From a virus (lineage: Duplodnaviria; Heunggongvirae; Uroviricota; Caudoviricetes): a stretch of DNA of 39,935 bases. Position numbers and translations under genes: made by a program. Positions 8,004-36,906 of this stretch are shown here, piece by piece. The stretch lies in the IMG/VR virus record IMGVR_UViG_2711768011_000006. The stretch is one strand, 5' to 3'. Positions within the stretch are counted from its first letter, which is position 1; each line of letters opens with the position of its first letter. The notes under the pieces were generated by a model. It was not told where the DNA came from and searched no databases. It was given only the letters and a program-made list of their open reading frames with translations.

Positions 8004-8006
8004 TGC

Positions 8007-8558: not shown

Positions 8559-8887
8559 TAACGACCTTATTTGTTGAATCAGATGAACCTCTTGTGTGTG
8601 CCGCCGGAATGCCGCTCTGTGGCGGAACGCTGACCGGCGTTTATTTCGGGGATTTGCGCGGTTATCCCTGGCATTCACTGGATGACGCATTTCCGCCTGA
8701 TATGGAGGCTGTCGTGCTGATTGTTCAGTATGGTGACCAACAGGAACTGCGCATCGGCCATATGGGGTATGAAGGCTTTTTTATTGATGAAGAAACCGGA
8801 GCCTGCCTTGAAGATGAGGACGGACAGGTGACGCACTGGTGCCATCTTTCGGCCTTGCCGGAATTACAGGGGATACATAATGGATGA
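8555..8887 (+). CDS. Hypothetical accessory early protein
   Basis: 110-aa ORF; ATGA overlap with the previous gene and ATGGATGA overlap with the next small ORF. Confidence 0.5.
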   Translation: MITTLFVESDEPLVCAAGMPLCGGTLTGVYFGDLRGYPWHSLDDAFPPDMEAVVLIVQYGDQQELRIGHMGYEGFFIDEETGACLEDEDGQVTHWCHLSALPELQGIHNG

Positions 8888-9023
8888 GCAAATTGTTGAA
8901 TGTCCCACCTGTGGAAATGAGGACCCGGAGTATCTGAAAGAGTGCCCACATTGTGGTGAGATAAAATGTAACCACTGCGATATGGGCGACGACACTGCAT
9001 GTATAAATTGTGAGGATGAATAA
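8880..9023 (+). CDS. Small cysteine-rich zinc-ribbon protein (47 aa; four CxxC pairs); absent from the ORF track because it is under 60 aa
   Basis: ATG at 8880 overlapping the upstream stop. Translation MDEQIVECPTCGNEDPEYLKECPHCGEIKCNHCDMGDDTACINCEDE; stop TAA at 9021-9023, 1 nt before the next ATG. Confidence 0.5.
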   Translation: MDEQIVECPTCGNEDPEYLKECPHCGEIKCNHCDMGDDTACINCEDE

Positions 9024-9024
9024 T

Positions 9025-9312
9025 ATGGAAAAAGAAATCAAATTTGCGCCTAAATCTATCGACGAAGAACTGGCTAAAATCGGCATGCTTGAACGTATGC
9101 GGGACATTATCGAATATGCGATAAAAGAAAATCTTGCAGCCAGAGAAGCCCTTTTGATAATGGAGCGGGAGATTAACCTGATTAAGGATGCTGTATCTCT
9201 GGATAATAAAATAGCCCGCGAGGAATACGTTCGCCGTAGGCTCGGTGTTGATGGTTCAGCAATTCTTACATCTGAACATTATGCAAAAATTTTTAATCTT
9301 TTTCAGCGGTAA
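9025..9312 (+). CDS. Hypothetical early protein (coiled-coil-like)
   Basis: ATG at 9025 (MEKEIKF...); 95 aa, rich in charged residues. Confidence 0.45.
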   Translation: MEKEIKFAPKSIDEELAKIGMLERMRDIIEYAIKENLAAREALLIMEREINLIKDAVSLDNKIAREEYVRRRLGVDGSAILTSEHYAKIFNLFQR

Positions 9313-9532
9313 TCCCCATACAGGCCCGGAGATTGTCGAAATGCCAGTCGGTATTAATATATGAGCCATCCTGGATATCTTCTGCATTTTCCGGGGTAGA
9401 GTTTTTTTGAGCGAGATTGATAATATGTATTGCCTCCTCACGGGAAATCAGCCCCTTATCGAACAGGGTTACCATAAGATTTCCAGCCATTGTGAATGCG
9501 GCAACATCAAGTGCATTTTTTATATCTGACAT
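9293..9532 (-). CDS. Hypothetical protein encoded antisense to the early operon
   Basis: 79-aa ORF with ATG and a well-spaced AAGGA ribosome-binding site on the minus strand. Sits in an otherwise non-coding 290-bp stretch. Confidence 0.45.
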   Translation of the reverse strand: MSDIKNALDVAAFTMAGNLMVTLFDKGLISREEAIHIINLAQKNSTPENAEDIQDGSYINTDWHFDNLRACMGITAEKD

Positions 9533-10185: not shown

Positions 10186-10608
10186 ATGGCTGAAACACAG
10201 ATGAGCATGTTTGGTGACAGCGAACAGCTGCACGCGCTGATTGACCGTCTGGATGATATTCCTGATGATGAGCTGAAAAAGAACTGGCCCGGCACGCTGC
10301 GGGACCTGGTTGATGTGATCAGTGCTGAACTGCACCGTCAGGGGATTGAACCTGCTCAGGCGGGAATGCTTGCCCGTAAGGTTGCAGCCGCACAGGCCGG
10401 GTACATGGGCGGGCGTGGTTATTATCTCCCGGTCGGTGAATCCCTTTTCACCGAACTGCGCAATAATGAAATTTTTTCCCGCTGGAGCCAGGGCGAAAAA
10501 ATTGAAACCCTGCGCCGCCACTACCAGATGTCAGAGACGCAGATTTACTCCGTTATCCGCAACCAGCGTCGCCTGCATCAGGAACGCACGCAGCCACGGC
10601 TTTTCTGA
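10186..10608 (+). CDS. Mor/C-family transcriptional activator (middle/late gene activator)
   Basis: 140 aa with Mor/C-like features (N-terminal MFGDSEQL, central GGRGYYLPVG, C-terminal HTH TQIYSVIRNQRRL). Located immediately upstream of the lysis genes. Confidence 0.8.
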   Translation: MAETQMSMFGDSEQLHALIDRLDDIPDDELKKNWPGTLRDLVDVISAELHRQGIEPAQAGMLARKVAAAQAGYMGGRGYYLPVGESLFTELRNNEIFSRWSQGEKIETLRRHYQMSETQIYSVIRNQRRLHQERTQPRLF

Positions 10609-13252: not shown

Positions 13253-13501
13253 ATGGCAACAGATAACCGCTCACTGATGAGCAGTGCCCATCAGAAAGCA
13301 TTCAGTCTTGCAACACAGTTACCTCCTGAAACCATAAAGGTATGTCGTGAGTTGACTGAACTCAGCATTGCCGGGGAAATATCCCTGGAACAACTGCATT
13401 CGCTGCTGGCAGAGGCTGCCACTGATGAGTTGAGCGGCGTGGACGTGATGACTGAAGAGCTTGAGTCCCGAATCAAAAGCATTCTGACAGGTAAAGCATG
13501 A
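13253..13501 (+). CDS. Small protein whose C-terminus duplicates the C-terminus of the upstream gp27-like protein
   Basis: 82 aa. C-terminal TDELSGVDVMTEELESRIKSILTGKA parallels TDELRGVDGMSEQIEFRIRQMLLGKA of the preceding ORF. Confidence 0.5.
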   Translation: MATDNRSLMSSAHQKAFSLATQLPPETIKVCRELTELSIAGEISLEQLHSLLAEAATDELSGVDVMTEELESRIKSILTGKA

Positions 13502-15165
13502 TGAACAAAGCCAGAGAAACGTCGCCTTCACTGATGCAAATGACGCCTCCCCGCAAAATTGATCTGTCAGGTGAAAAAGCCCTGCTGGGCGTGGATGTGC
13601 CGGACAGCCTTGATTTGCCCGGTGATATGCCGGTGTTTCTGGATTATCAGGCCCGCTGGTTTGCAGATGAAAGTCAGGTCTGCATCGCGGAGAAATCCCG
13701 CCGCACCGGTCTTACCTGGGCGGAAGCCGGGCGTAACGTCATTACTGCTGCAAAACCGAAGCGTCGTGGTGGCCGCAATGTGTTTTATGTGGGATCAAAG
13801 CAGGAGATGGCGCTGGAATATATTTCTGCCTGCGCGCTGTTCTCCCGTGCCTTTAACCAGCTGGCAGATGCTGATGTGTATGAGCAGACATTCTGGGATC
13901 GGGATAAAAAAGAAGAAATTTTGACCTACATGATCCGCTTTCCGAACAGTGGATTCAAAATTCAGGCATTGTCTTCCCGTCCGTCAAACCTGCGCGGCCT
14001 TCAGGGGGATGTGGTGATTGATGAAGCCGCGTTCCACGAGTCACTGGATGAGCTTCTCAAGGCGGCAATGGCGCTCACTATGTGGGGCGCGCGCGTGCGT
14101 ATTATCTCCACGCATAACGGCGTCGATAATCTGTTTAATCAGTACATTCAGGAAGCCCGCGAGGGGCGCAAGGATTACAGCGTCCACCGCATAACCCTGG
14201 ATGATGCCATTGCGGACGGGCTGTACCGTCGTATCTGTTACGTCACCGATCAGGAATGGTCACCGGAAAGCGAGCAGAAATGGCGTGATGATCTCTACAA
14301 AAACGCCCCGACCCGTGAGGATGCCGACGAGGAATACGGCTGTATCCCGAAAAAATCCGGCGGTGCCTATATCCCCCACGCGCTTATTGAAATGGCGATG
14401 ATCCGCGACATCCCGATTCTGACGTTTGAAGCCCCGGACAACTTCATCAGCCGTGCCGCATGGCTGCGTGAATCGGAAGTTTTAACCTGGTGTGAAGAAC
14501 ATTTAAAACCGCTTTTAGAGAAATTAAATCCCCGTTCCCGCTTCAGCTTCGGGGAAGACTTTGCCCGCACCGGTGACCTGTCCTGCTTTGTGCTGCTGGA
14601 AATCACCGAATCCCTGGCAAAGCGCGAGGTGTTTCGCGTGGAGCTGCGCAACCTGCCGTATGCCCAGCAGGAACAGGTGATGATGTACATCCTGACCCGC
14701 GTTCCGGCGCTGGTCGGTGCGGCGTTCGACGCCACCGGTAACGGCGGCTATCTGGCAGAGGCCGCACTGCTGGCCTTTGGCCCGGACATCATCGACTGCG
14801 TGATGTTGTCGCCGAAGTGGTACGGCGAGTGGATGCCAAAACTGAAAGCCGAGTTTGAAGATCAGAATATCCTCGTCGCCCGCCATCAGACCACGCTTGA
14901 TGATTTGCGCCATGTGAAGGTAGTGAATGGTATCCCGCAAATCGACAAGGGGCGCACGAAGGACCAGAACGCAACGGCTGCGAACGCCCGCCGCCATGGT
15001 GATTTTGCCGTGGCGCTCTGTATGGCAAACCGGGCGTCATACATGGAGGGCTTCATCCTGGATGAATCAGCCTGTCAGGCGCTACAGGAGCGGTCGCGGG
15101 CAATGGAGGGCGGTTATCGTGATGACGATGAGGCATATCATGAATTTGATCGGGGGGGCTGGTAG
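13498..15165 (+). CDS. Terminase large subunit (Mu gp28-like)
   Basis: 555 aa with ATPase and nuclease-like regions, in the Mu terminase position directly upstream of the portal gene. Confidence 0.9.
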   Translation: MMNKARETSPSLMQMTPPRKIDLSGEKALLGVDVPDSLDLPGDMPVFLDYQARWFADESQVCIAEKSRRTGLTWAEAGRNVITAAKPKRRGGRNVFYVGSKQEMALEYISACALFSRAFNQLADADVYEQTFWDRDKKEEILTYMIRFPNSGFKIQALSSRPSNLRGLQGDVVIDEAAFHESLDELLKAAMALTMWGARVRIISTHNGVDNLFNQYIQEAREGRKDYSVHRITLDDAIADGLYRRICYVTDQEWSPESEQKWRDDLYKNAPTREDADEEYGCIPKKSGGAYIPHALIEMAMIRDIPILTFEAPDNFISRAAWLRESEVLTWCEEHLKPLLEKLNPRSRFSFGEDFARTGDLSCFVLLEITESLAKREVFRVELRNLPYAQQEQVMMYILTRVPALVGAAFDATGNGGYLAEAALLAFGPDIIDCVMLSPKWYGEWMPKLKAEFEDQNILVARHQTTLDDLRHVKVVNGIPQIDKGRTKDQNATAANARRHGDFAVALCMANRASYMEGFILDESACQALQERSRAMEGGYRDDDEAYHEFDRGGW

Positions 15166-16754
15166 TGGGACGCATCATTGATACTGACGGAAAACCTTTC
15201 TCCTTTGACCCGGAGATGCAGAGTGCCGCGCTGGATATTCCGCAGATTGCCAGCCGTTATATTGAACATCCGGCTTCGGGTATCACCCCGAACCGGGCGG
15301 CGCAGTGCCTTCGCGGGGCTGAACGTGGCGATCTGATTGCCCAGTCCGATCTGGCCGCTGATATTGAAGAAAAGGACACCCACCTTTTTGCGGAGCTGGG
15401 CAAGCGACGTCTTGCCATTCAGGGGGTGCCATGGAGTATTGAGCCGCCACCGAACGCCAGCGCGAATGAGAAAAAGGACGCGGAAATGCTCGACGAATAT
15501 CTGCATTCCGCAGACTGGTTTGATGCCATGCTGTTTGACGCCACGGATGCCATCCTGAAGGGCTATTCCTGCATGGAAATTGAGCACGGGATGCTCGGTA
15601 AAATGCACATCATCCGCGCCATCCGCTGGCGTGACAGCGGGCATTTCTGCCTTAACCCGGATGATTTGAGCGAACTGCGGCTGCGTGACGGCAGCCATGC
15701 CGGGGTGGCGTTTCAGCCCTTTGGCTGGATAGTGCATCAGTCGCGTTCACGCACCGGCTACGGTGGTGCGACGGGGCTTGTCAGAACGCTTATCTGGCCG
15801 TTCATTTTCAAAAACTATTCCGTGCGCGATCTGGCGGAATTTCTGGAGGTGTACGGCCTGCCAATGAAGGTCGGGAAATACCCGTCCGGGGCAACACCGG
15901 AGCAGAAAAGTGCCCTGATGCGGGCGGTGATGGATATCGGGCGACGTACAGGCGGGATCATCCCGGCCGGGATGTCGCTGGAGTTTCAGGCGGCAGCGAA
16001 CGGTCAGGCCGATCCGTTTGAAACCATGATTTCGTGGGGTGAGCGTTCCATCTCCAAAGCAATACTCGGCGGCACGCTGACCACAGAAGCCGGAGACAAA
16101 GGCGCGCGCTCGCTGGGTGAGGTGCATAACGAGGTGCGCCGGGAAATCAGGGATTCTGATTTACGCCAGCTGGCTGCAACCCTGAACCGCGATCTGGTGT
16201 ATCCGCTGTATGCCCTGAACACCGCCCACGCCATTGATATCCGTCGCCTGCCGCGTATCTGTTTCCAGACCAAAGAACCGGGGGATATCACCAAAATAGC
16301 CAGTGCGGTGATGCAACTCAGTGCGGGGATGGATATTCCTGATCCCTGGGTACGGGATCAGACCGGTATTCCACAGCCCACGCCCGGTGAAGCCATATTC
16401 CGTGTCCGTCAGAGCAGTAATGAACCGGCCATGCCTGACAGGGAAACGCTACCGGAAAAACAGGAAAAGACAGAACAGACGGCGCTTTCAGCCCGACTGC
16501 CGGAAGCGAAAAACACGCCGCGTGATGAACTGGACGACATGGGGGACGCGGTGCCTGCCCGCCGCTTACAGGAGGCCATCGATCCGGTGCTGGAGCCGGT
16601 CATTGATGTCATCAGAACGCGGGGGCTGGCGGAGGCACTGGCAGACCTGCCTGCCCTTTACCGTGAAATGGATGATTCCCGCCTGATGACGCTGCTCAGT
16701 GATGCCATGTTTGCTGCGGAAATGAAGGGGATGCTGGATGGCTCAGGGGATTGA
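15165..16754 (+). CDS. Portal protein (Mu gp29-like)
   Basis: 529 aa with GTG start overlapping the terminase stop. Size and position match the Mu portal. Confidence 0.85.
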   Translation: MGRIIDTDGKPFSFDPEMQSAALDIPQIASRYIEHPASGITPNRAAQCLRGAERGDLIAQSDLAADIEEKDTHLFAELGKRRLAIQGVPWSIEPPPNASANEKKDAEMLDEYLHSADWFDAMLFDATDAILKGYSCMEIEHGMLGKMHIIRAIRWRDSGHFCLNPDDLSELRLRDGSHAGVAFQPFGWIVHQSRSRTGYGGATGLVRTLIWPFIFKNYSVRDLAEFLEVYGLPMKVGKYPSGATPEQKSALMRAVMDIGRRTGGIIPAGMSLEFQAAANGQADPFETMISWGERSISKAILGGTLTTEAGDKGARSLGEVHNEVRREIRDSDLRQLAATLNRDLVYPLYALNTAHAIDIRRLPRICFQTKEPGDITKIASAVMQLSAGMDIPDPWVRDQTGIPQPTPGEAIFRVRQSSNEPAMPDRETLPEKQEKTEQTALSARLPEAKNTPRDELDDMGDAVPARRLQEAIDPVLEPVIDVIRTRGLAEALADLPALYREMDDSRLMTLLSDAMFAAEMKGMLDGSGD

Positions 16755-18069
16755 TTTAGGTTATGCCGCCACGCTTCCCTCAAAAGAGACGGTGGCATAC
16801 TTCCGCGCCAAAGGGGCGCATATCAGCTGGAACTGGTTCGAAACAGACGCGGATGTTCATGCCCGCTCATTCACGGCAGCAAAAACGGCACGGCTGGATG
16901 TGGTAACCACATTACAGGCCGAAGTGCAGCGGGCCATTGATGAGGGGATTTCACAGAAAGAATTTATCCGCACACTGACGCCACGCCTGCAAAAGCTGGG
17001 ATGGTGGGGAAAGCAGATTGTGGTGGACAGCGACGGTAACGCGGAAGAAGTGCAGCAGGGCAGTCCCCGTCGTCTGGCGCTGATTTACAACGTGAACACC
17101 CGTGTGGCTTACAATGCCGGGCGTTACACGCAGATGATGAACAACACGGACACGCATCCGTTCTGGCAGTATGTGGCGGTCATGGACAGCCGTACCCGCC
17201 CGTCGCATTCCGCCCTTAACGGTCTGGTATTCCGCTATGACGATCCGTTCTGGAAAACACACTACCCGCCCAATGGCTGGAACTGCCGCTGCCGTGTGCG
17301 GCCATTGTCTCAGGCCCGTCTGGATGCAATGGGGTTATCCGTTTCATCCGGTGAGGATCATCTCTCCACCCGCAATGTTGAGGCTGGCGTGGATAAACAG
17401 ACCGGAGAAGTCAGAGAAATGCCGGTGACCACATATTCAGATGGCGCCAGAACCATGACACCGGATGTGGGCTGGTCATATAACCCCGGCTCGGCAGCGT
17501 TCGGCACAGACCAGGCGCTGATCCGCAAACTGATCGAGGTGAAAAGCCCGGCGTTACGGGAAATGGTGGTTCAGGAGATGAACAACAGCCCGGAGCGGCA
17601 GCTGGCGTTCCGCATCTGGGCAAAAAACATCATGCAGACCCGGCGAGGTGGTAACGATATCCGCACGCTGGGCTTTATGACTGAAAGCATTGCGCAGGCA
17701 GTGGAAAGCCGGACGGGAACGCCACCGGCCCGCCTGCTGGCGATGAGCGGTAAAAATGTGCTCCATGCGGACAGTGTGAAACATCAGAATGACGGCATCG
17801 CTCTGACGCCGGAGGACTTCGGGCGCTTACCGGCAATGCTGGCAAGGCCAAAAGCGGTACTGTGGGACAAACGGCACAACAATCTGATGTATATCGTGGA
17901 AAATCAGGATGGCAGTGTGCAGATTGCCGTTAATGCACCGTACAGTCTGAAACGTCAGCCCGACAAACTGGATGTGATTGTGAATGCTTACCGGGTTATC
18001 AATATGGATAAGCTGAAATCGGATATCCGGGGCGGAATGCTTGAGGTGCTGGAAGGACAAATTGATTAA
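16738..18069 (+). CDS. Head morphogenesis protein (Mu F / gp30-like, SPP1 gp7 family)
   Basis: 443 aa containing the conserved block YVAVMDSRTRPSHSALNGLVF...NGWNCRCRVRPL typical of the F/gp7 family. Confidence 0.85.
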   Translation: MAQGIDLGYAATLPSKETVAYFRAKGAHISWNWFETDADVHARSFTAAKTARLDVVTTLQAEVQRAIDEGISQKEFIRTLTPRLQKLGWWGKQIVVDSDGNAEEVQQGSPRRLALIYNVNTRVAYNAGRYTQMMNNTDTHPFWQYVAVMDSRTRPSHSALNGLVFRYDDPFWKTHYPPNGWNCRCRVRPLSQARLDAMGLSVSSGEDHLSTRNVEAGVDKQTGEVREMPVTTYSDGARTMTPDVGWSYNPGSAAFGTDQALIRKLIEVKSPALREMVVQEMNNSPERQLAFRIWAKNIMQTRRGGNDIRTLGFMTESIAQAVESRTGTPPARLLAMSGKNVLHADSVKHQNDGIALTPEDFGRLPAMLARPKAVLWDKRHNNLMYIVENQDGSVQIAVNAPYSLKRQPDKLDVIVNAYRVINMDKLKSDIRGGMLEVLEGQID

Positions 18070-18070
18070 C

Positions 18071-18150
18071 GGTCAGTGGCGGGGGTCGAACCCGCATACA
18101 TGATCCACCCGGAGGCAGGCACCGACTTTACCAGTTAAGCGTACACTGAC
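18071..18150 (-). other. tRNA-like structured element (acceptor-like stem, D-arm-like and T-arm-like hairpins; no canonical anticodon arm)
   Basis: On the minus strand, GTCAGTG pairs with CACTGAC 66 nt away. A T-arm-like GCGGG-TTCGACC-CCCGC and a D-arm-like GCTT-AACTGGTA-AAGT are present. No 5-bp anticodon stem could be folded by eye. Confidence 0.3.
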
Positions 18151-18190
18151 CGCCTGTTTATTTTATATTCATCCTTTATGCGGAGGCAAT

Positions 18191-18664
18191 ATGTCATCCA
18201 TTGATGCAGCTGTCGTTGTTGACGTTACGCGTCTCCAGCGAGTGTTTGCCCGGCTTCAGTTTGTGGGCGGCGGAAAAGACCTGGCCCGCAGTGTGGCGGC
18301 GAGTCTTCTGTCATCGTCAGAAATGGCGTTTGAGCAGGAAAAAGAGCCGGATGGTGAACGCTGGCATGACTGGTCAGATCCTTACCGTGAGTGGCGTACC
18401 CGTAAGGGATACACGCCCGGCAAAATCCTGACGCTGAACGGCGATCTGGCCCGCCGCCTGACCACGGATTATGGCGATACCTGGGCGCTGATTGGATCAA
18501 ATGAACCTTATGCAGCCATTCATCAGTGGGGTGGCCTGCCTGGTATGCCACCGGGACCGGCGGCCATTGGCGCACGTCCGTATATGGGCTTTGATCAGGT
18601 GGCAGAACAGGAGATCATGGACGAAATCAGAAAACGCTTTAAAAAGGCCACAGAAACGCCGTAA
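18191..18664 (+). CDS. Virion morphogenesis protein (Mu G / gp31-like)
   Basis: 157 aa in the Mu G position between F and I. Confidence 0.7.
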   Translation: MSSIDAAVVVDVTRLQRVFARLQFVGGGKDLARSVAASLLSSSEMAFEQEKEPDGERWHDWSDPYREWRTRKGYTPGKILTLNGDLARRLTTDYGDTWALIGSNEPYAAIHQWGGLPGMPPGPAAIGARPYMGFDQVAEQEIMDEIRKRFKKATETP

Positions 18665-18841
18665 TGGTTTAAGGTATGCAAACGTATTACCTTACCCCCT
18701 TCAGGCGCGTGTCGTGATTTTCTAACCTGTATTTAACGGGCTTTAAAATCTGCGTGAAGCGCCTTTCTCATTCCCCCCCTGTCAGCACTTTCTGAAGTCC
18801 CGCAAAACCAGCCCCAAAAATACCCGGCTTATGCTGCCGGT

Positions 18842-19975
18842 ATGAAGACAGAAAATCACCCAAAAGACGCAAATCGCCCCTCCGGTTTAGCCGTGCTTTC
18901 AGCTTCGCTGACTGCATCCGGCGACGGATGGTGTCAGTTACTGCCAGCCGGTCGGGTAAAGGCCCGTGACGGTCGCCCGGAAAAACCGACTGAAGGCTGG
19001 CTGATTAACGAATCCGCCTGTAACCGGATGAAAGCCGGGCTTTCCGCCCTGCATCAGCCGTTACTGATTGATTATGACCATCACTCCGTGAATGCGCAGA
19101 AAAACGGATTCAAGGCTATTGCTGCAGGATGGGTTAAGCCGGAAAACATCGAATGGCGTGAGGGTCAGGGGATTTTCATTAAACCTGAATGGACACCACA
19201 GGCACAAAAACATATTGATGACCGTGAATATGCCTATCTGTCTGCATATATGCATTATTTCGCTGACACCGGGGAACCCTACCTGTTGCGCATGGCTTCC
19301 CTGACGAATGATCCGGGTATTACGGGTATGAACCCTGTCGCGGCACTCAGTGCTGATGATCTCTATGTCGTTTCCCCTTCTCAGGAGCAATCCCCCATGA
19401 ATGAGCAATTACGCCAGTTGCTGACGGCGCTCGGTCTGACCGTGGCTGACGGTGACGAATTTACACCGGAACTGGGCACGGCGGCGCTGTCTGCCCTTAC
19501 CGGGATCAAAACCCGTGCGGATGCGCACGACACCCTGAAAACGCAGGTTGCCAGCCTGTCGGCAGAACTGGAAACCGCAAAAGGCACACCAACTGGCGGC
19601 ACTATTGATCTGACGAAATATGTGCCCGTTGAGACGTATAACGCCCTGCGTACCGAATATGCCGCGCTGTCGGCACAACACGGCAGCACCACGCTGGAGC
19701 AGTTGCTGGATAAGGCCGAGTCCGAAGGACGCATTTTCAAAAGCGAACGCGGATACATGGAAGGACTCGGACAACAGATTGGCGTCGCGGCACTTTCTGC
19801 ACAGCTTGACGCCCGCCAGCCGGTTGCGGCTCTGACCACTCTTCAGACCGACACCGTAACCGTGCCGGATAAAAAGACCGCCACCGCTGTGCTGTCGGCT
19901 GAAGATATCGCCGCCGCACGTCTGTTGGGTAAAACCGAAGCCGAGTTCCTGAAAATGAAAGAGGAAATGCAATAA
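18842..19975 (+). CDS. Prohead protease/scaffold protein (Mu I-like)
   Basis: 377 aa immediately upstream of the major capsid gene. Alanine/leucine-rich helical C-terminal half is consistent with a scaffold domain. Confidence 0.8.
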   Translation: MKTENHPKDANRPSGLAVLSASLTASGDGWCQLLPAGRVKARDGRPEKPTEGWLINESACNRMKAGLSALHQPLLIDYDHHSVNAQKNGFKAIAAGWVKPENIEWREGQGIFIKPEWTPQAQKHIDDREYAYLSAYMHYFADTGEPYLLRMASLTNDPGITGMNPVAALSADDLYVVSPSQEQSPMNEQLRQLLTALGLTVADGDEFTPELGTAALSALTGIKTRADAHDTLKTQVASLSAELETAKGTPTGGTIDLTKYVPVETYNALRTEYAALSAQHGSTTLEQLLDKAESEGRIFKSERGYMEGLGQQIGVAALSAQLDARQPVAALTTLQTDTVTVPDKKTATAVLSAEDIAAARLLGKTEAEFLKMKEEMQ

Positions 19976-20922
19976 TGCCTACCCCGATTACACCGGCGAT
20001 GATCACCGCCCTGATGACGGGCTACCGTTCTGATTTTCAGGCCGGGATGTCCATGGCTCCGTCGCAGTACCAGAAAATTGCGATGACCGTGCCGTCCACC
20101 TCGAAATCCAACACCTACGGCTGGCTGGGGCAGTTCCCGCAGTTCCGTGAGTGGATCGGCTCCCGCGTCATCGAGAAGATGAAAGCCTATGGCTACGCCA
20201 TCGTGAACAAAACCTTTGAAGGCACCGTTGCCATTAGCCGCGATGACTTTGAAGACGACAATCTCGGCATCTACTCCCCGTTATTCCAGGAAATGGGTCG
20301 TGCCGCTGCGGCACAACCGGATGAACTGGTCTTTGCTGCACTGCGTGATGGTCTGAATGCGGCCTGCTATGACGGCCAGAACTTCTTTGATACCGAACAC
20401 CCTGTTTACCCCAAAGTGGATGGCTCCGGTGATGCACAGATGGTCAGCAATATGTTTGTGGCAAAAACCGGCTCTGTCGGTGCACAGGCGGATTACAGCG
20501 GCCCGGCCTGGTATCTGCTTGACTGCTCCCGCGCGGTAAAACCGCTGATTTATCAGGATCGCCGCAAAGCCGAACTGGTTGCCCAGACAAAAGTCGATGA
20601 AGGCCGTGCGTTTACTGATAACGAGTTTGTGTTCGGTGCTTCCGCCCGTCGCAATGTGGGCTACGGCTTCTGGCAGATGGCCTACATGATGCAGTCACCG
20701 CTGACGCTGGATGCGCTGTGGCACGGCTGGTCAGCCATGCGTGACTTTAAGGCTGACGGTGGCCGCAAACTCGGCATCAAACCCACCCATATTGTTGTCC
20801 CCACCTCGCTGGAAAAACAGGCGGTGCAGCTGCTGGAGCGCGAGCTGTTCGCAGACGGTAACGCCACAGTCTCTAACGAGATGAAGGGCAAGCTGGAGCT
20901 GGTTGTCGCGGATTATCTGTAA
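19975..20922 (+). CDS. Major capsid protein (Mu T-like)
   Basis: 315 aa directly following the protease/scaffold gene (ATGA overlap). Confidence 0.85.
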   Translation: MPTPITPAMITALMTGYRSDFQAGMSMAPSQYQKIAMTVPSTSKSNTYGWLGQFPQFREWIGSRVIEKMKAYGYAIVNKTFEGTVAISRDDFEDDNLGIYSPLFQEMGRAAAAQPDELVFAALRDGLNAACYDGQNFFDTEHPVYPKVDGSGDAQMVSNMFVAKTGSVGAQADYSGPAWYLLDCSRAVKPLIYQDRRKAELVAQTKVDEGRAFTDNEFVFGASARRNVGYGFWQMAYMMQSPLTLDALWHGWSAMRDFKADGGRKLGIKPTHIVVPTSLEKQAVQLLERELFADGNATVSNEMKGKLELVVADYL

Positions 20923-21741: not shown

Positions 21742-22301
21742 TTACGGAAACCGAGCAGGCGTACATCGCCCGTATCCGTGAGTATTTCGGGAATGAACTG
21801 GTGTCTGTTGACACACATCCCGGCGACTGGAGCGACAGCGTACTGCGCACCATGCTGATTAACGCCCCGGCTATCTATGTTGCCTGGCTGGGTGCCGGTG
21901 AAGGGCGTACCCGTGGGCGTCTGGTCAGTCACTGGGTGTTCTACGTCATCGGCGACATGCTCAATGGCCGTGAGGTCAGCCGTCCCGGGCTTTATCAGAT
22001 TGTGGCCCGCCTGATTACCGTGCTGGACGGCTTCAGAGCAGAAAAAACCTCACCGCTTTACTTTGAAAAGGCGGTCAACGGTTACACCGAAACGCAGGCA
22101 GGCAGCGGTGCCGTGATGTACGCCCTGTATTTCTCATGCGAGGAAATGATCGACCCGCTGACGGATATCAGCTCGCTGGATGATTTCCTGCGCCATTACG
22201 AAACCTTTACCGAACCGGAAGGCACGCCGGAATTTAAGGCACACATCCGTCTGCCTGGTGCAACTGCCGCCGGTGAAAACGCCGGACTGTCAGAGGAATA
22301 A
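21738..22301 (+). CDS. Mu gp37-like protein (tail completion/terminator region)
   Basis: 187 aa; position corresponds to Mu K/gp37. Confidence 0.6.
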   Translation: MITETEQAYIARIREYFGNELVSVDTHPGDWSDSVLRTMLINAPAIYVAWLGAGEGRTRGRLVSHWVFYVIGDMLNGREVSRPGLYQIVARLITVLDGFRAEKTSPLYFEKAVNGYTETQAGSGAVMYALYFSCEEMIDPLTDISSLDDFLRHYETFTEPEGTPEFKAHIRLPGATAAGENAGLSEE

Positions 22302-22304
22302 CAG

Positions 22305-22583
22305 ATGACAACCATTTTTATTAAACCTGCGCCGGGATGCCTGATCCGCGATCCCGACACGATGACTCCGCTCTCTCAGGACGGGGAAGAGAAACCCTTC
22401 ACTCCGTTCTGGTGCCGCCGTCTTAATGATGGCGACGTCATTGTGGTGGATAAAACGGCGGAGCCTGCCCCGGCTGCCACAACTGCTAATACCGGCGCGG
22501 CGGCAAAACCAGCGGGAGCGGTAGCAGAAAAAACTGCGGCGGTGGCTGAAAAAACCGCAGCATCAGATAAGGGGACGTCCTGA
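22305..22583 (+). CDS. Mu gp38-like small protein
   Basis: 92 aa with an Ala/Thr-rich C-terminal tail, immediately upstream of the sheath gene. Confidence 0.5.
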   Translation: MTTIFIKPAPGCLIRDPDTMTPLSQDGEEKPFTPFWCRRLNDGDVIVVDKTAEPAPAATTANTGAAAKPAGAVAEKTAAVAEKTAASDKGTS

Positions 22584-24085
22584 TGATTAACTTTGATTAT
22601 ATCGGCGATAACAATCGCATTCCGCTGGTACAGATTGAAATCAATAATTCAATGGCCGTGACCGGCACTCCACCACAGCGTCAGGCGGTACTGTTGTTTG
22701 GTCAGGCTGCAATGAAAGACACTACCATTCAGGGGCGCGGTCAGCTTGATGTACCAGTACGTATTACCCGAGCTTCACAAGCAAGAGAACTCTGGGGGCG
22801 AGGTTCCATGATTGCACTGATGGTAGAGGAATTTATCGCCATTAACCCTGACACAGAGTTATATGCCATTGCACAGGGGGCTGGAACAGGTCAGTCCAGG
22901 GCATGCGTGATGAATATCATTGGAACAGCATTGGCAGACGGGGTGTTAAGTGTTTACATCGGCGGTCGCCGTTACCTCCTGCCCGTCAGTAAGGGGAAAA
23001 AAGGTAAAGAGCTTGTGGAAGAGCTGGCTAAGGTCATTAACGCTGACACTGATGCGCCATTCACTGCTATCGCAGCTGAAGTCAGTGGTGATAATGCTGA
23101 AGGACTTAAAGGCAGCATGGGGGTTAACGCCCGCTTTATCGGTGAATGCTCAGCTCATGATTTACGGGTGAACTATTATGACGGTGAAACTACACCGGCC
23201 GGTCTTACGCTGGAGCTCGTCGCGCCAACACAGAAGGCAACAAACCCCGATATCACCCGTAGCGTCTCAGGGATGGGGAATCGTCAGTACAACTACATCG
23301 TCATGCCCTATAAGGATGCGGCAAATCTCAAAATTCTGGCGGATGAACTGCTGAAACGCTGGGGACCGGTAAAAATGTCGGACGGTATGGTCTGGATGGC
23401 GCATACCGGCACCTTCGGTACGGCAACCAGTTTTGGTGAATCCCGTAATGACTTCCTGTTTACCTGCACTTCTATTCCTAAAGCACCAGAGCCGGATTAT
23501 GTCTGGGCTGCCTCCATTTGTGCGGTCTGTGCGCCCTCCCTGTCAACGGATCCGGCCCGACCATTACAGACACTGGCGCTGCCTGCCCGTATGGCACCTG
23601 AAGCACCGGATCGTCTGACGCGGGAAGAGCGAAACAGCCTGCTTTATACCGGCATGTCCACGGTGACCGTCGCGGCCGCGGATGTGGTGCAGATTGAACG
23701 TCAGGTGACGATGTACCGTCAGAATGCATACGGCGAAATCGATCCCAGCTATCTGGATGTGGAAACCATCTACACCCTGTCATATCTGCGTTATTCCCTG
23801 CGCACCTTTATCACGCAGCGTTTTCCGCGCCATAAACTGGCTGATGACGGGACGCCCGTTCGTGCCGGTCAGAATATCGTGACACCGGAGATCATGAAAC
23901 TTCAGTTAATTTCGCTGGGGGAAGAATGGGTGGATCTGGGACTGGTCGAAAATCTGGACACCTTTAAAAAGAATCTGCTCGTGGAGCGCAACACAAAAGA
24001 CCGTAACCGTCTGGATGTGATGTGTACACCGGATCTGGTTAACCAGTTCCGCTTCATGGCCGCGCAGATCCGTTTCATTTTGTGA
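22583..24085 (+). CDS. Contractile tail sheath protein (Mu L-like)
   Basis: 500 aa followed directly by the tail tube gene; size and position typical of myovirus sheath. Confidence 0.9.
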   Translation: MINFDYIGDNNRIPLVQIEINNSMAVTGTPPQRQAVLLFGQAAMKDTTIQGRGQLDVPVRITRASQARELWGRGSMIALMVEEFIAINPDTELYAIAQGAGTGQSRACVMNIIGTALADGVLSVYIGGRRYLLPVSKGKKGKELVEELAKVINADTDAPFTAIAAEVSGDNAEGLKGSMGVNARFIGECSAHDLRVNYYDGETTPAGLTLELVAPTQKATNPDITRSVSGMGNRQYNYIVMPYKDAANLKILADELLKRWGPVKMSDGMVWMAHTGTFGTATSFGESRNDFLFTCTSIPKAPEPDYVWAASICAVCAPSLSTDPARPLQTLALPARMAPEAPDRLTREERNSLLYTGMSTVTVAAADVVQIERQVTMYRQNAYGEIDPSYLDVETIYTLSYLRYSLRTFITQRFPRHKLADDGTPVRAGQNIVTPEIMKLQLISLGEEWVDLGLVENLDTFKKNLLVERNTKDRNRLDVMCTPDLVNQFRFMAAQIRFIL

Positions 24086-24093
24086 GGTAAGGC

Positions 24094-24459
24094 ATGAGCG
24101 GAAAACAGTATCAGGGCACGGCCACCATCCGTGTGAACGGGCAGGAGTACGACACCCTTGAGGGGGCCACGTTCTCCCCGTCCGGCTTTGAGCGTGAAGT
24201 GGTGAAAGGCGCGAAAGTTTACGGCTATCGCGAGAAACCCCGTGAGGCGACGCTGGACTGTAAATTCCCGGCGGGCGGAGAAGGTTCACCGGCTGCCGAT
24301 GAAATCAACACCTGGACTGCGGTCACGATTGAGTTCGTGGCCGATACCGGTGAAGTCCACATGATGACGAAGGCCTGGAGCAGTGAACCGGCCTCGCTTG
24401 ACGGTGGTGGTGATATCTCCGCGAAGTTCGCCAGCGCCACCAGTACCCGTGTCCAGTAA
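24094..24459 (+). CDS. Tail tube protein (Mu M-like)
   Basis: 121 aa directly after the sheath gene. Confidence 0.85.
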   Translation: MSGKQYQGTATIRVNGQEYDTLEGATFSPSGFEREVVKGAKVYGYREKPREATLDCKFPAGGEGSPAADEINTWTAVTIEFVADTGEVHMMTKAWSSEPASLDGGGDISAKFASATSTRVQ

Positions 24460-24473
24460 TCAGGAAAAATGTA

Positions 24474-24950
24474 ATGAGCACACGTAAGAAAAAAACGGCG
24501 GTTTCTGACGAGGCCGTGATGGAGGCTATCCGGGATGCACTTGAAGACGGCGATCCCCGCACCGCCGGGCTGGCTGAACAACTGGCGAACGGCTATGTGG
24601 ATCTGCTCGACGGTCTGCCGTTCGGGGAATCCCGTGAATACCGCGTCACCTTCCGCGAACTGACGGCAAAAGACAGCATTGATGCGGAGAGCGAGGCCGA
24701 GCGTCTTATGGAAACCCGAAACGGTCCGGTTCTTGTGGCCTCACCGGCACTGCGCGGCATTGCGCTGCTGCGCCGTCAGATTGCCGCTGTCGGCCAGATT
24801 GAGGGGCCATTGTCTCCGCGTCAGATAGGACAGCTCAGCGAGCGCGATCTCTCCCGACTGATGGCGGCAGTAAGCCTGCTTGATTCCGCGATGGCCGGAA
24901 AGCTGGTCGCTGAACGGGGGCGACCAGATGCAGTGCCGGGATCAGATTGA
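24474..24950 (+). CDS. Tail assembly chaperone (Mu gp41-like)
   Basis: 158 aa immediately upstream of the tape measure gene. Confidence 0.6.
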   Translation: MSTRKKKTAVSDEAVMEAIRDALEDGDPRTAGLAEQLANGYVDLLDGLPFGESREYRVTFRELTAKDSIDAESEAERLMETRNGPVLVASPALRGIALLRRQIAAVGQIEGPLSPRQIGQLSERDLSRLMAAVSLLDSAMAGKLVAERGRPDAVPGSD

Positions 24951-25074
24951 AGAAGCCGCAATTGTGCTGGGGATGGTGACAAAAAGCGGCCCGGAGTGGG
25001 CGCTTAACCTCCCCTTATCGCAGCTTTACCGGCACTGCCGACAGACCGAAAAAATTCTCAGAACGAAGCAGTAA
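24880..25074 (+). CDS. Possible frameshift extension of the tail assembly chaperone (+1 frame overlapping the chaperone 3' end)
   Basis: 64-aa ORF in the +1 frame overlapping the last 70 nt of the chaperone gene and ending just before the tape measure start. This is the usual location of programmed frameshifts in tail chaperone genes. Confidence 0.3.
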   Translation: MIPRWPESWSLNGGDQMQCRDQIEEAAIVLGMVTKSGPEWALNLPLSQLYRHCRQTEKILRTKQ

Positions 25075-25077
25075 CCC

Positions 25078-27135
25078 ATGGCAAAAAACCTGAAAGCCTC
25101 CCTGATTGTCGATTTACTCGGCAATATTTCTGCCAAATCCCGCCAGTGGTCACAGGAGCTGGGGGCATTCTCCCGTTCCGGCAGGACGGGGCTGGGTGGT
25201 CTTGGAAATGCAGCACGTCGTGCCGGTCAGGAGACAGAACTTGTCGGCTCCCGTATGCAGCGAACGCTTGCCGGTGTTCGTGGCAGTATCCGCACGGTGA
25301 CGTCAGATTTTGACCGCCTTCAGGGCAGCATTACCGGCACCATCGGGCGGATAAGCAACCTTTACGGGATGCTGGCGGGAGGGGCTGCGGTCTACGGGTT
25401 TAATAAAGCCTTTATCCGCCCGGCCGCAGAGATGGAGAACTATATTCTGCGTCTCAACGCCATTAATCATGGCGATACGGCAAAAACGGAAGCAGTGAAA
25501 GCCTGGGCGGTACAGAACGCCAAAGACACCACCTGGGGGCTGGCGGGGGTTATGCAGGAATACGCCTCCAGTCGCGGGTTCGGTATGAGTGACAGGGAAG
25601 CCCGTCGCTTTATTACCATGCTTCAGGATCAGGGCGGCTATCACGGCTGGTCACTGTCAGATGCACAGGGTGCGTCCCTGCAACTCAAACAGATGTTTGC
25701 CCGCCAGAGTATCCAGGCAGCGGACGCCAATATTCTGACCGGATACGGGATTAACGTTTACCAGTTGCTGGCCGATAAGCTGGGTGTAAACCAGAAGATC
25801 ATCCGTGAGAAAGGCGAGAAAGGAAAACTGGGACCGGACAGCATTCGCCTGTTATTTCAGGTGATGGCCGAACAGGCAAAAGGTGCCCAGAAAAACGCCA
25901 TGAATTCCTGGACGGGAATGACGTCCATGATGGGCGATGTCTGGGACGGATTTGCCCGCGAGGTGATGGCAAAGGGACCGTTTGACAGCCTGAAAAAGAG
26001 CCTGAAAGGCTTTCTGGATTATGCTGATGCGGCACAGAAAAGCGGCTTACAGGATAAGCTGGCCACACAGACGGCCTCAGCCCTGAATCAGGGATTTGAG
26101 TATGCCAGAGACGCTGCGACCGGCTTTTACCGGGTCATTCAGAAAGTCAGGGAAACGCTTCAGGCACTGCGCGACGCCGGTTATGGCGATGCGCTGGATC
26201 GCATTGGTCAGGGTGCGCAGACCGCCGCAAAGTACCTGATGTATATGTATCTCGCCTCCCGTGCGCTGAAGGTGCTCAGGTTTGCGGGGACGGGGGCATT
26301 ACGTCTCGGCGCAACCCCCTTACGCTATGGCATGGCGATGACCTCCGTGCTGACGTCGCCCTTCCGCAAACCGCAGACCACTGTACCGGGAACGCAGCCC
26401 GGACGCGCTGGCCGGTTCCTGAATTTCCTTACCGGGGTAAATCCGGCTGCCGTTCAGCCCGTGCTGGTCACCAATTGGCCTGCGGGTGGCCTGGCCTCAG
26501 GTGGCGGGGATGTGGTGGTCAGCGGTGACGGCAAAACCGTGCGCGGCCGTAAAAAACGCGGCCCCGGACGTGGACGGGGTGTCACGACCGTCGTGACTGC
26601 CGGTGAGCAACTGGCGGAGAGTGCCGGTAAACAGGGCTTCTTCGGTCGTATGATGAGCCGTGCCGGTGGTCTGCTAACGGCGGCCGGAAACCGCATGGGG
26701 CTGGGGCGTTTTGCCGGGCTGTTCCGTGGTGCCGGTCGGCTGGGTGGTGGTGCCCTGTGGGCCGGTGCCATGGCGGCTCCTGTACTGCTGGACAGCAGCG
26801 CCAGTGCAGCCGATAAAGCCGGTGCCGTGGGTTCCCTTGCCGGAAGTATCGCCGGTGGCGCGCTGGGGGCGGCTGCCGGTCCGGTCGGGGTTGCCATTGG
26901 TTCCACGGTGGGCAGCTATCTCGGTGATTATCTGGGGGGCTGGCTGACGCAGGCCTGGCAGAAACTGCGTGGCGGCAGTGACGAAAACGGCGGACAGGCC
27001 ACCGCGAAAACCGCCGCACGGGTGGAGCTTGTTGCCCCTGAAGGCTGGCGGGCGCGCAGTATTGATGTGGATGATACCGCACAGCATGGCCTGGATGTGA
27101 ACGTCTGGAACGGAGGGAACTATGGCCTCTACTGA
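25078..27135 (+). CDS. Tail tape measure protein
   Basis: 685 aa, helical N-terminal two-thirds and Gly/Ala-rich C-terminal region. Located between the chaperone and baseplate genes. Confidence 0.85.
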   Translation: MAKNLKASLIVDLLGNISAKSRQWSQELGAFSRSGRTGLGGLGNAARRAGQETELVGSRMQRTLAGVRGSIRTVTSDFDRLQGSITGTIGRISNLYGMLAGGAAVYGFNKAFIRPAAEMENYILRLNAINHGDTAKTEAVKAWAVQNAKDTTWGLAGVMQEYASSRGFGMSDREARRFITMLQDQGGYHGWSLSDAQGASLQLKQMFARQSIQAADANILTGYGINVYQLLADKLGVNQKIIREKGEKGKLGPDSIRLLFQVMAEQAKGAQKNAMNSWTGMTSMMGDVWDGFAREVMAKGPFDSLKKSLKGFLDYADAAQKSGLQDKLATQTASALNQGFEYARDAATGFYRVIQKVRETLQALRDAGYGDALDRIGQGAQTAAKYLMYMYLASRALKVLRFAGTGALRLGATPLRYGMAMTSVLTSPFRKPQTTVPGTQPGRAGRFLNFLTGVNPAAVQPVLVTNWPAGGLASGGGDVVVSGDGKTVRGRKKRGPGRGRGVTTVVTAGEQLAESAGKQGFFGRMMSRAGGLLTAAGNRMGLGRFAGLFRGAGRLGGGALWAGAMAAPVLLDSSASAADKAGAVGSLAGSIAGGALGAAAGPVGVAIGSTVGSYLGDYLGGWLTQAWQKLRGGSDENGGQATAKTAARVELVAPEGWRARSIDVDDTAQHGLDVNVWNGGNYGLY

Positions 27136-28480
27136 CACGCCGGGGCGTGGCTCCTTTCGTGGCGTACCGTTCCTGGTTTATCAGGAGCAGCGGGAACGGG
27201 GCGGACGTAACATTGTGCGCCGTGAATACCCACTGCGTGAAAGCGGCGGTGCGGATGATCTGGGGCCAAAACTCCCGGAGTTCACATTCACGGTTCTGGT
27301 GACCGGAGACGATCTTCAGACACAGCGAAGCCGCCTGCGTGATGCGCTGCGTGCACCCGGTGCCGGTGAACTGATGCACCCGGATTACGGCACGTTAAAC
27401 GTGCTGATAAACAGCTTTGAAAGCCGTTATAACGCCAGCGAGCAGGGAACGGTTGAGTTCACGATCAACGTGATCCCCGCCAGTGACGATACCGCCCCTG
27501 CGGTGGCAGAAGATACGGCAGCTGCGCTGGAGCAGAAAAGCGGCTCAGCAATGAATCAGCTGTTTAACACGCTTTCAGACGGCTGGACGGTGATTTCAGA
27601 CGGTCTGCATGATGTACAGGCCATGACCGACACCATCAGCGATAAGATTGATGCACTGGAGAATGCCGTTTCGGGGATGGGGATTGTGCAGGATATCAGT
27701 GCCTTTACGGCCAGTTTTACTGCCCTGAAAGGCAATGCCGCCGCCCTGATTAATGCGCCCCGTCGCATGGCTGAATCGCTGGCCGGAATGTTTGCCGTGC
27801 TGACCGGGCTGCCCGGCGATCCTTCCCTGTCTCTGACCGGAAAAGCCGGAACGCCGTCCGGCAGCCTGACCACAAACCGTGACAGCATGGCAGAGCAGGC
27901 CATGCCGCAGCTGTACCGCACACTTTCCTCCCTGCGTTACACCCTCAGCGAACAGGATGATCCACAGCGCCTGATTGGCCTGACGCCTGCGGCACAGAAA
28001 AATATCCGTCTGCTGCGGAGCGTGATGCAGAGTGCAACCCTGGTGTCGCAGGCACAGACGCTCGGAAAACTGCTGGATCAGGTCATCCGGCAGAATACGA
28101 CGCACGTTCAGGATACTGACCGTTCGGGCGGACTGGCCTGGCTGGAAAGTTCTGCTGATGTGCAGCGTATCAACCGGGATTTGAGCGATGCCATGGAACA
28201 ACAGGTGCTGGATCTGTCCGCACAGGGCTATACCGGGACTGCCCTTGCATTACGTGATGCAGGGCTTGCGCTGACAGAAGATTTAACCACACGGAGCGTG
28301 CATCTTCCCGGTGCTTTTCAGGTCATGGTTCGCACCACCGAACCGGCACTGGTCACGCTGTACCGTGCCACCGGCAACAGCAGTCGCTGGCAGTATTTTG
28401 TCCGCAGAAACAATATCCCCGATCCGGTTTTTGTTCCGGGTGGCCGCAGCGTGGAGGTGATCAGTGAGCAGCAGGATTGA
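27122..28480 (+). CDS. DNA circularization protein (Mu P / gp43-like)
   Basis: 452 aa in the Mu P position after the tape measure. Confidence 0.75.
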   Translation: MASTDTPGRGSFRGVPFLVYQEQRERGGRNIVRREYPLRESGGADDLGPKLPEFTFTVLVTGDDLQTQRSRLRDALRAPGAGELMHPDYGTLNVLINSFESRYNASEQGTVEFTINVIPASDDTAPAVAEDTAAALEQKSGSAMNQLFNTLSDGWTVISDGLHDVQAMTDTISDKIDALENAVSGMGIVQDISAFTASFTALKGNAAALINAPRRMAESLAGMFAVLTGLPGDPSLSLTGKAGTPSGSLTTNRDSMAEQAMPQLYRTLSSLRYTLSEQDDPQRLIGLTPAAQKNIRLLRSVMQSATLVSQAQTLGKLLDQVIRQNTTHVQDTDRSGGLAWLESSADVQRINRDLSDAMEQQVLDLSAQGYTGTALALRDAGLALTEDLTTRSVHLPGAFQVMVRTTEPALVTLYRATGNSSRWQYFVRRNNIPDPVFVPGGRSVEVISEQQD

Positions 28481-34100: not shown

Positions 34101-34114
34101 GAGGTTTTCAGGAA
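34089..34114. promoter_or_regulatory. gix-like recombination site (right): TTCCCGTAAACC-GA-GGTTTTCAGGAA
   Basis: Near-palindromic 26-bp site. Differs from the recalled Mu gixL at 1 position in the left half. Confidence 0.6.
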
Positions 34115-36892: not shown

Positions 36893-36906
36893 GCAGGATA
36901 AAAAAA

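Follow-up and report, generated by a model that had tools for sequence, protein, structure and literature searches.

The tRNA-like element between genes F and G

The stretch of DNA analysed here, referred to as the window, is the 39,935-nt viral record IMGVR_UViG_2711768011_000006. It is a Mu-like (Sp18-type) transposable prophage of E. coli, and the genes relevant to this study all lie on its plus strand. Between its genes F and G, an 80-nt element resembling a transfer RNA (tRNA) is present on the minus strand (18071-18150). Gene F (16738-18069; Pfam Phage_Mu_F and MuF_C) encodes the MuF minor head protein, which aligns with Mu gp30 along its entire length at 59% identity, while gene G (18191-18664; Pfam Phage_tail_S) is a virion morphogenesis gene. 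The F stop codon is 1 nt away from the 3′ end of the RNA core. The element is very probably a selected, structured, tRNA-derived, non-decoding RNA gene, which sits as a moron at the F-G junction in one branch of the Mu-like phages.

Read on the minus strand from 18150 to 18071, the core covers tRNA positions 1-73 and runs GUCAGUG-UAC-GCUU-AACUGGUA-AAGU-C-(GGUGC CUGCC UCCG GGUGG AUCAUGUAU)-GCGGG-UUCGACC-CCCGC-CACUGAC-C, where the round brackets mark the arm that stands in place of the anticodon arm. The acceptor stem is formed by 7 bp, GUCAGUG/CACUGAC (18150-18144 with 18078-18072), and is followed by a D arm, GCUU-AACUGGUA-AAGU (18140-18125), with GG in its loop. The T arm, GCGGG-UUCGACC-CCCGC, occupies 18095-18079. 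The discriminator base is the C at 18071, and CCA is not encoded. In the folds, the replaced arm (18099-18123) consists of a lower stem GUG/CAU, an internal loop and the hairpin CUGCC-UCCG-GGUGG (18118-18105), in which an upper stem CUGCC/GGUGG carries a UCCG tetraloop. A preliminary description, made from the sequence alone, had noticed the acceptor-like stem, the D-arm-like hairpin and the T arm with its canonical TTCGA loop on this strand, had found no canonical anticodon arm and had therefore held that this is not a standard tRNA gene. All of these points are borne out.

The minimum free energy fold is a four-way junction, with the third arm a 5-bp stem closed by the UCCG tetraloop. Its stability is unremarkable as compared with shuffled sequences (z = -1.3 to -1.9). 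Many features of decoding tRNAs are present, namely the 7-bp acceptor, the D arm with G18 and G19, and the T arm with U54, U55, C56, R57 and A58. The anticodon arm of a decoding tRNA, on the other hand, has a 5-bp stem, a 7-nt loop, U33 and an anticodon, whereas here a 5-bp stem carries the 4-nt UCCG loop. Since the arm is closed by a tetraloop, the RNA cannot read a codon. Outside the core, a leader and a trailer pair with each other (GGCG upstream with CGUU downstream) and lengthen the acceptor helix to ~11 bp. With these included, the family covariance model R1 matches 18067-18155 on the minus strand at 91.9 bits, and this is the sole copy in the window.

The Rfam tRNA model RF00005 aligns to the core end to end (18071-18150, minus strand; model positions 1-71 of 71) with 31.0 bits, the gathering score being 29. 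The E value is 9.4e-5 in a 351-nt scan and ~0.01 when scaled to the whole window. The alignment carries a 24-nt insertion where 18 model positions of the anticodon region belong. A whole-window Rfam scan with fast filters gave no RF00005 match at 18071-18150, and ARAGORN reported zero tRNA and zero transfer-messenger RNA (tmRNA) genes in the window; the former result of ARAGORN is explained by the closed, UCCG-capped hairpin that replaces the anticodon arm. Taken together, these two negative results make the element borderline as a ‘tRNA’. The resemblance of its UUCGA T loop and GG D loop to those of tRNAs is confined to the minus strand, and the Rfam scan of the plus strand yields no match. 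The Prokaryotic Genome Annotation Pipeline (PGAP) calls ‘tRNA-OTHER’ at identical coordinates in a 100% identical prophage in RefSeq (L002 1972-2051, corresponding to 18071-18150 of the window). The same label is found on many further copies, inconsistently, and no call is made in copies with a common T-loop change, G57A (TTCAACC). The covariance-model search that the preliminary description had proposed is thus positive.

A sigma-70-type promoter is predicted directly upstream of the RNA, on the same strand, with a -35 box TTGCCT (18189-18184), an 18-nt spacer and a -10 box TAAAAT (18165-18160). It is the single such site in a consensus scan of 17500-19000, in which about one would be expected by chance, and its position is kept in the relatives. 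All E. coli-type copies have TTGCC(T/C), a spacer of 17-18 nt of unrelated sequence and TAAAAT. The -10 boxes of the distant copies are TATACT (L046), TGG-TATACT (L045, L051), TGT-TATATT (L042), TATGCT (L048) and TAGGAT (L008). In every copy compared, 7-9 nt separate the end of the -10 box from the first base of the extended acceptor helix, the length of which is mostly 9-11 bp (14 bp in L042). Because of this constant distance, the transcription start is predicted at ~18152-18154, in the first bases of the extended helix. The element thus appears to carry a promoter of its own, as is expected of a moron. No terminator-like site was called in the scan of the window. A copy of the type found in Leminorella is the sole one followed by a terminator-like hairpin, CCCCGCACUGCGGGG, with a U-rich run, 4 nt past the element.

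The presence or absence of the element at an otherwise shared junction is another trait of a moron. Sp18-like phages have a gap of ~120 bp between F and G that houses the element, whereas in phage Mu the same junction is gapless: F and G overlap by 4 nt, there is no intergenic region and no element, and the family covariance model finds zero matches in the Mu F-G segment. The stretch 17600-18700 of the window is 100% identical to the corresponding stretch of strain 600029, and 230 of the 5426 complete E. coli genomes contain matches to it of at least 80% identity. About 4% of complete E. coli genomes carry the RNA in their F-G region, and many of these belong to O157:H7 or other Shiga-toxin strains. 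Prophage Sp18 of strain Sakai has an unannotated copy of arm type B at ~NC_002695.2:5058636-5058725.

Conservation of the fold and the allelic arm

Searches for relatives used the T-arm and the D-arm sequences against viral contigs and also covered one genome per species and metagenomes; ~60 loci were obtained. Eight of these are unrelated genuine tRNAs. The remaining loci fall into two contexts, apart from L042/L049: between homologues of F and G in a Mu-like phage, antisense to them, or 3′ of SSB-PerC-Mor genes in a small island. In the first context the element is always antisense, and the F proteins are 74-78% (L009, L017, L020, L022, L023, L047), 63% (L046), 54% (L008, as well as L029/L037 from Leminorella grimontii) or 43-47% (L045, L048, L051) identical. 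The element is thus kept at the same site in related prophages, the comparison which the preliminary description had also called for. With both of these checks positive, the combination of negative findings that it had named as a refutation does not hold. Between the window and L009/L023 the element itself is 96-98% identical, while identity over 300 nt of the adjoining G and F sequence on each side is 67-70%, and the 17-18 nt promoter spacer beside the element has essentially no shared sequence.

The L042/L049 copy differs from the others, with mismatches in the T and acceptor stems. It belongs to a divergent Mu-like prophage (L042 11859-14313, and L049) and lies ~2 kb past the major head gene, in an accessory region. 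It stands upstream of a DUF2971 protein of 393 aa, a match to the candidate defence family PDC-S31 of PADLOC, with a DUF2199 protein adjoining. The region looks like an accessory or defence islet.

Covariation was measured over 15 distinct sequences and 17 pairs, comprising the acceptor, D and T stems and a -1:73 pair. It was observed that 93.7% of the cells are paired, and this falls to 36-58% when the partners are slid by 1-3 columns. In 8 of the 17 pairs both sides have changed, and the covariation score was reached by none of 500 column shuffles. In the acceptor stem, pair 2:71 is C-G, U-A, A-U or U-G among relatives, pair 3:70 is C-G or U-A, and pair 4:69 is G-C or A-U; pair 50:64 of the T stem is C-G or U-A. 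Three pairs of the D stem have changed on both sides, the D-stem covariation coming from the Leminorella-type copy. The -1:73 pair also covaries (GC 7, UA 3, GU 2). Further, U8, A9, A14, A15, G18, G19, U20, A21, G53, U54, U55, C56, G57, A58 and C61-C63 are invariant in the allele alignment, and these are the nucleotides that form the elbow and core of a tRNA. The covarying stems, the invariant elbow and the contrast of 96-98% with 67-70% in the flanks together rule out a decaying pseudogene. Thus, where the preliminary description had left a choice between a degenerate tRNA, a tRNA mimic and another structured RNA, the tRNA mimic stands, and degeneration in the sense of decay does not.

A recurrent A58C change in the T loop (TTCGCCCCCC for TTCGACCCCC) was seen in L040, L041, L050, L052-L054 and the second unit of L005, that is, in phage and satellite copies. 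A homopolymer artefact of sequencing could account for it, or else a mutation, tolerated or relaxing, at a tRNA position that is normally universal.

No copy was found to have a 7-nt anticodon loop. Each has a closed hairpin instead, mostly capped by a tetraloop, and the hairpins fall into distinct alleles. Allele A (window, L009, L023) has the lower stem GUG/CAU, the upper stem CUGCC/GGUGG and a UCCG or, in L009 and L023, UUCG loop. Allele B (Sakai, L004, L034, L020, L022) has the stems CAUA/UAUG and ACCC/GGGU with UCAG, UCAA, UCCG or UUCG as the loop. The Leminorella type (L008) has ACGC/GCGU, compensatory relative to B, with the loop UAUC. Among metagenome contigs, the loop is UUCG in L061/L070 and CUCU in L064. 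Alleles C, D, E and others (L003, L017, L047, L045, L051, L077) have longer arms, of 17 to ~45 nt. Within an allele the stems are constant and the loop letters shift among stable tetraloops, which is contrary to what would be expected of an antisense seed.

The loop region of the window, UGCCUCCG, is the exact complement of the ribosome-binding site of G, CGGAGGCA, and masking of this site by the arm was considered. It was rejected, as the loop of L009 and L023 is UUCG with no matching change, so that the 8-nt match is lost in both; the other alleles lack the motif, and UCCG and UUCG are both UNCG tetraloops. For targets in trans, no complementarity of 12 nt or more was found in the window outside the RNA’s own locus. 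A few complementary matches of 9-11 nt resemble chance, although the shuffle control is confounded by the match of the RNA to its own locus.

The arm is part of a larger allelic block. By 100-nt tiling against four complete relatives (one of type A with G57A, two of type B and one of type C), the interval ~17800-18190 was found to be the sole one that tracks the RNA allele, with 58-73% identity to the B- and C-type prophages as against 93-100% on both sides. This cassette takes in the MuF_C end of F (its last ~90 codons) along with the RNA gene and the putative promoter. No distant phage gene tracks the allele in the four complete prophages as compared with the window; the adjacent F tail alone does. 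The phages compared represent two backbones, between which the N-terminal parts of F are ~78% identical, as against 89-99% within each. Irrespective of backbone, the final 90 residues of F group according to the RNA allele (A-A 71%, B-B 71%); A-B comparisons of this tail give 56-66%, also in cases where the N-terminal parts reach 95-97%. It follows that the alleles are old and have been exchanged as a block, and the polymorphism of the MuF_C domain is likewise old. The F tail and the RNA arm may be functionally connected, though plain linkage suffices to explain the cassette. Alleles D and E have near-identical F tails and different arms. The most variable part of the F tail (window 17800-18070) is a segment of ~12 residues just ahead of its conserved GG-x-LE-L/V-LEG end.

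Two protein-based explanations of the region were also rejected. A 77-aa antisense open reading frame lies downstream of the element in the window, and the open frame is lost in relatives. Similarly, F does not appear to be a MuF polymorphic toxin with the RNA as antidote; it is an ordinary full-length orthologue of Mu gp30 with no extra domain.

Copies in a probable satellite island

The second context is the small island. In strain JNEC-KY179, it is ~8 kb long, lies at a tRNA-Ile gene beside mug and has two tRNA-like units at its end. Its genes code for an integrase, a helix-turn-helix protein, Ash, Icd-like proteins, DUF4222, a RepA-type helicase, SSB, PerC and a Mor-family activator. The units lie 3′ of Mor in the same orientation as these genes, and are antisense to no gene. 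Strain STEC17-183 has three units, and the order SSB-PerC-Mor-array is repeated on four metagenome contigs. The arrays hold 2-3 units of different arm classes: one is B-like, another has a C/D/E-like junction and a third is A-like. The A-like unit has a palindromic arm, CAGCC-UGUACA-GGCUG, and is labelled ‘tRNA-Tyr’ by PGAP. The integration site is the genuine tRNA-Ile gene next to the integrase and not the tRNA-like units.

The immunity region of the island (locus L005) contains an Rfam-confirmed isrK and two genuine C4 antisense RNAs. As the island has C4 RNAs of its own, the tRNA-like units must be something else. The combination of a P4-like immunity region with a Mu-type activator suggests that the island is a satellite of Mu-like helpers, and no published description of such a satellite was found. 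A search for proteins common to the satellite and the window returned Mor alone, with 44% identity.

The preliminary description had called the element antisense to late transcription. This is correct for the phage copies, whereas the satellite copies are antisense to nothing. The function of the family therefore does not depend on pairing with the F-G mRNA, and the antisense placement is probably not essential to it, judging from this arrangement of the copies.

Island loci were recorded at L005/L038 (NZ_AP045176.1 ~744400-752700) and also at L001, L072, L075, L078 and L080. In STEC17-183 (L001 3350-3763; NZ_CP075652.1), the same satellite ends beside a truncated mdtP and not at the tRNA-Ile site; this hints at a rearrangement or at another route of insertion.

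Possible roles and known counterparts

How such an RNA might work can be outlined as follows. Host RNA polymerase with sigma-70 would start ~7 nt past the -10 box, on the strand opposite to late transcription, so that the RNA could be made in the lysogen without phage activators. The first bases would pair with the 3′ trailer, and the transcript of ~85-90 nt would fold into an L-shaped tRNA body with an acceptor helix, a D/T elbow and a variable loop. A stable tetraloop would close the anticodon arm and exclude codon reading. Maturation may be carried out by the host tRNA enzymes, through RNase P, 3′ trimming and possibly CCA addition. A factor that reads the elbow and the acceptor, and not the anticodon, would then bind the RNA ‘as a tRNA’, with the allele-specific arm tuning the choice of partner. 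The net role would be that of a tRNA-shaped decoy or adaptor in phage-host or phage-satellite conflict. That the RNA is such a trans-acting mimic, with the arm giving allele specificity, is the reading we favour, tentatively and at somewhat less than even chances. The mimic probably descends from a phage tRNA, because real tRNAs on other viral contigs share the T-arm and acceptor-end sequence with it.

Several points weigh against this picture. The promoter is a consensus match, of a kind that arises by chance about once per 1.5 kb, and its -35 box coincides with the translation start signals of G (ribosome-binding site and start codon) on the opposite strand, which would be conserved regardless. 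The leader-trailer helices of 9-14 bp are unfavourable for RNase P and leave no free NCCA end; the RNA may never resemble a mature tRNA. As the product of a single-copy gene, a decoy would face competition from the very large tRNA pool of the cell. Moreover, the A58C change in the T loop of some copies is expected to weaken the elbow, and outside the cassette no gene of the phage segregates together with the allele.

The chief alternative, conceivable though rather unlikely, is that the RNA acts in cis instead. A transcript running antisense into the 3′ end of F could pair with the late F-G mRNA or collide with late transcription, and thus silence leaky late expression in the lysogen or set the F:G ratio; the tRNA-like fold would then provide stability or a processing site only, much as in the C4 RNA of P1 and the CI RNA of P4, which RNase P processes. 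The phage copies are indeed always antisense to F-G and abut the F stop codon, the E. coli-type ones have no terminator of their own, the variable cassette reaches into the F tail that such a transcript would cover, and the element replaces the translationally coupled F/G overlap of Mu. However, the satellite copies lie in sense orientation in an intergenic array with nothing opposite, and an antisense function has no need of invariant elbow nucleotides in the T and D loops. The predicted start of the RNA lies downstream of the ribosome-binding site of G, hence masking would not occur, and the terminator 4 nt past the Leminorella-type element would let the transcript barely enter F. A partnership with F itself has been considered as well. 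The allele-specific arm would be recognized by the hypervariable C-terminal tail of F, for which the RNA would be a cofactor, chaperone or packaged companion, and the satellite would carry one RNA per class, so that the F of any helper encountered could be captured or blocked. This we consider distinctly improbable. Neighbouring divergent DNA should co-segregate through linkage alone, so that neither the status of the F C-terminal domain as the sole part of the prophage co-segregating with the allele nor the clustering of F tails by allele across two backbones demands it; alleles D and E combine nearly the same tail with different arms, the tail has no recognizable RNA-binding motif, and Mu F works without any such RNA. 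The B-like, C/D/E-like and A-like units of the satellite arrays would suit it. A broader version, in which the variable arm is read by the hypervariable F tail or by some other polymorphic partner and the satellite holds one RNA per arm class for any Mu-like helper, is also a long shot. If true, it would be the first tRNA-shaped specificity determinant in transposable-phage morphogenesis or piracy.

The reverse complement in the late mRNA, together with a U-rich tract, UGUUUAUUUUAUAUU, might terminate or attenuate transcription between F and G or serve there as a processing site, for the plus strand also has a four-way fold, closed by an 8-bp helix with a T-rich run directly after it, and the conserved ATTTTA could be a U-tract and not a -10 box. 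But the tRNA resemblance exists on the minus strand only, with no plus-strand Rfam match, and no terminator-like site is called there. Distant copies, those of the Leminorella type included, have a weak T-rich tract and good -10 boxes, and the satellite copies do not have this context, which makes a plus-strand element very unlikely. A functionless relic, that is, a decaying phage tRNA gene without an anticodon, or a recombination or attachment site acting as DNA, would fit the borderline tRNA score, the ARAGORN negative, the inconsistent PGAP calls, the circulating A58C and G57A variants and the mismatched stems of the L042/L049 copy beside accessory genes; the cassette boundaries are moreover recombination breakpoints. 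It is nevertheless highly unlikely in view of the compensatory changes in three stems, the invariant elbow and the conservation of the element well above its flanks. Every allele has a well-formed capped hairpin, which is not random decay, and the satellite integrates at a genuine tRNA-Ile gene.

The trans-acting mimic may be compared with several known classes of RNA. Phage tRNA genes (RF00005) share with it the cloverleaf, the 7-bp acceptor, the GG D arm, the UUCGA T arm, the short variable loop and, in some of them, the absence of an encoded CCA. They differ in that here there is no anticodon loop and no decoding; a closed hairpin of variable length and sequence takes its place, and the acceptor is extended by leader and trailer. 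The C4 RNA of P1/P7 and the CI RNA of P4 (RF01695) are cloverleaf-like immunity RNAs of ~77-79 nt, processed by RNase P. Like them, the present RNA is small, presumably stable and tRNA-resembling, belongs to a temperate phage or satellite and is predicted to be made in the lysogen. Unlike them, its loops vary freely and are not antisense seeds, and the window has no complementary target boxes of 12 nt or more. An identity with C4/CI was rejected, as no C4 match was obtained at the window locus up to an E value of 10, while the same method found the two true C4 genes in satellite L005.

Another group is that of the pseudo-tRNAs, such as ‘tRNA-Other’ of Bacillus cereus and the species 1 and species 2 RNAs (rnaC, rnaD) of phage T4. 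These too are tRNA-derived RNAs kept by selection outside ordinary decoding. However, the B. cereus RNA keeps an anticodon-type arm and the T4 RNAs sit in a tRNA cluster, whereas the present gene stands alone, inserted antisense into a head operon, and its arm is capped and varies by allele. Eukaryotic tRNA mimics are also known, among them the vtRNAs of murine gammaherpesvirus 68 (MHV68), mascRNA and the tRNA-like 3′ ends of plant viruses. They likewise use a tRNA shape for recognition by host tRNA enzymes without decoding, but belong to another domain of life, with other transcription and processing machinery, and have no sequence relationship to the present RNA.

The tRNA-like domain of tmRNA is a further counterpart, being an acceptor and T-arm module with no anticodon. 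The T arm of E. coli tmRNA, GCGGG-UUCAACU-CCCGC, is nearly the same as that of this RNA, and the induction of Mu reportedly requires the tRNA function of tmRNA; both are mentioned as leads only. In contrast to tmRNA, there is no G3:U70 pair here, no tag reading frame and no pseudoknots, and a full D arm is present. The RNA was accordingly not accepted as a tmRNA: pair 3:70 is C-G or U-A, ARAGORN finds no tmRNA, and just a 17.6-bit partial tmRNA match was seen in one relative. The absence of G3:U70 also disposes of an alanine identity. The histidine pair G-1:C73 is present in many copies and is U:A or G:U elsewhere; because of these swaps, it is read as an extension of the helix and not as a histidine identity. 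A bacterial Y RNA (YrlA-type), in which the tRNA-like module is closed at the acceptor end and the two ends of the RNA make up the Ro-binding stem, was rejected too, as the ends here form an acceptor helix, and there is no match to a Y RNA family.

Literature searches found no paper on this RNA. What is known already is the database flag ‘tRNA-OTHER’; what is new is a tRNA mimic of phages and a satellite in which the capped arm is interchangeable. To our knowledge, non-decoding tRNA-shaped RNAs are established as regulators and mimics, and few have been described in bacterial viruses. The present one is unusual in its single fixed site across Mu-like phages down to ~45% protein identity, its probable promoter of its own, its swappable capped arms and its sharing with a satellite. 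Databases carry it silently, as ‘tRNA-OTHER’ or unannotated. If it is a decoy or adaptor, it would indicate that the conflict of phages with hosts or satellites has an RNA layer as yet unexplored. Since arbitrary arms are tolerated, the fold might serve as a natural scaffold for stable RNA expression.

The surrounding genes of the window, all on the plus strand, include those for transposase A (1824-3911), transposase B (3985-4926), Mor (10186-10608), the large terminase (13498-15165) and the portal (15165-16754) upstream of F, and for the protease (protease/scaffold gene I, 18842-19975) and the major head protein (19975-20922) downstream of G. Gene I has sharply distinct alleles among near-identical prophages, with ~73-75% as against 96-100% protein identity. 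The annotation of Mu places a strong gyrase cut site just past G, and the G-I spacer of the window spans 18665-18841. Mosaicism with respect to the four E. coli relatives was seen in window regions 8001-9500, 22000-31500 and 34000-37500. The tail region of the window is 70-84% identical to the three type A/B prophages and 69-84% to the type C one, and a part of the early region, ~9001-9500, is common to the type C prophage alone among the four.

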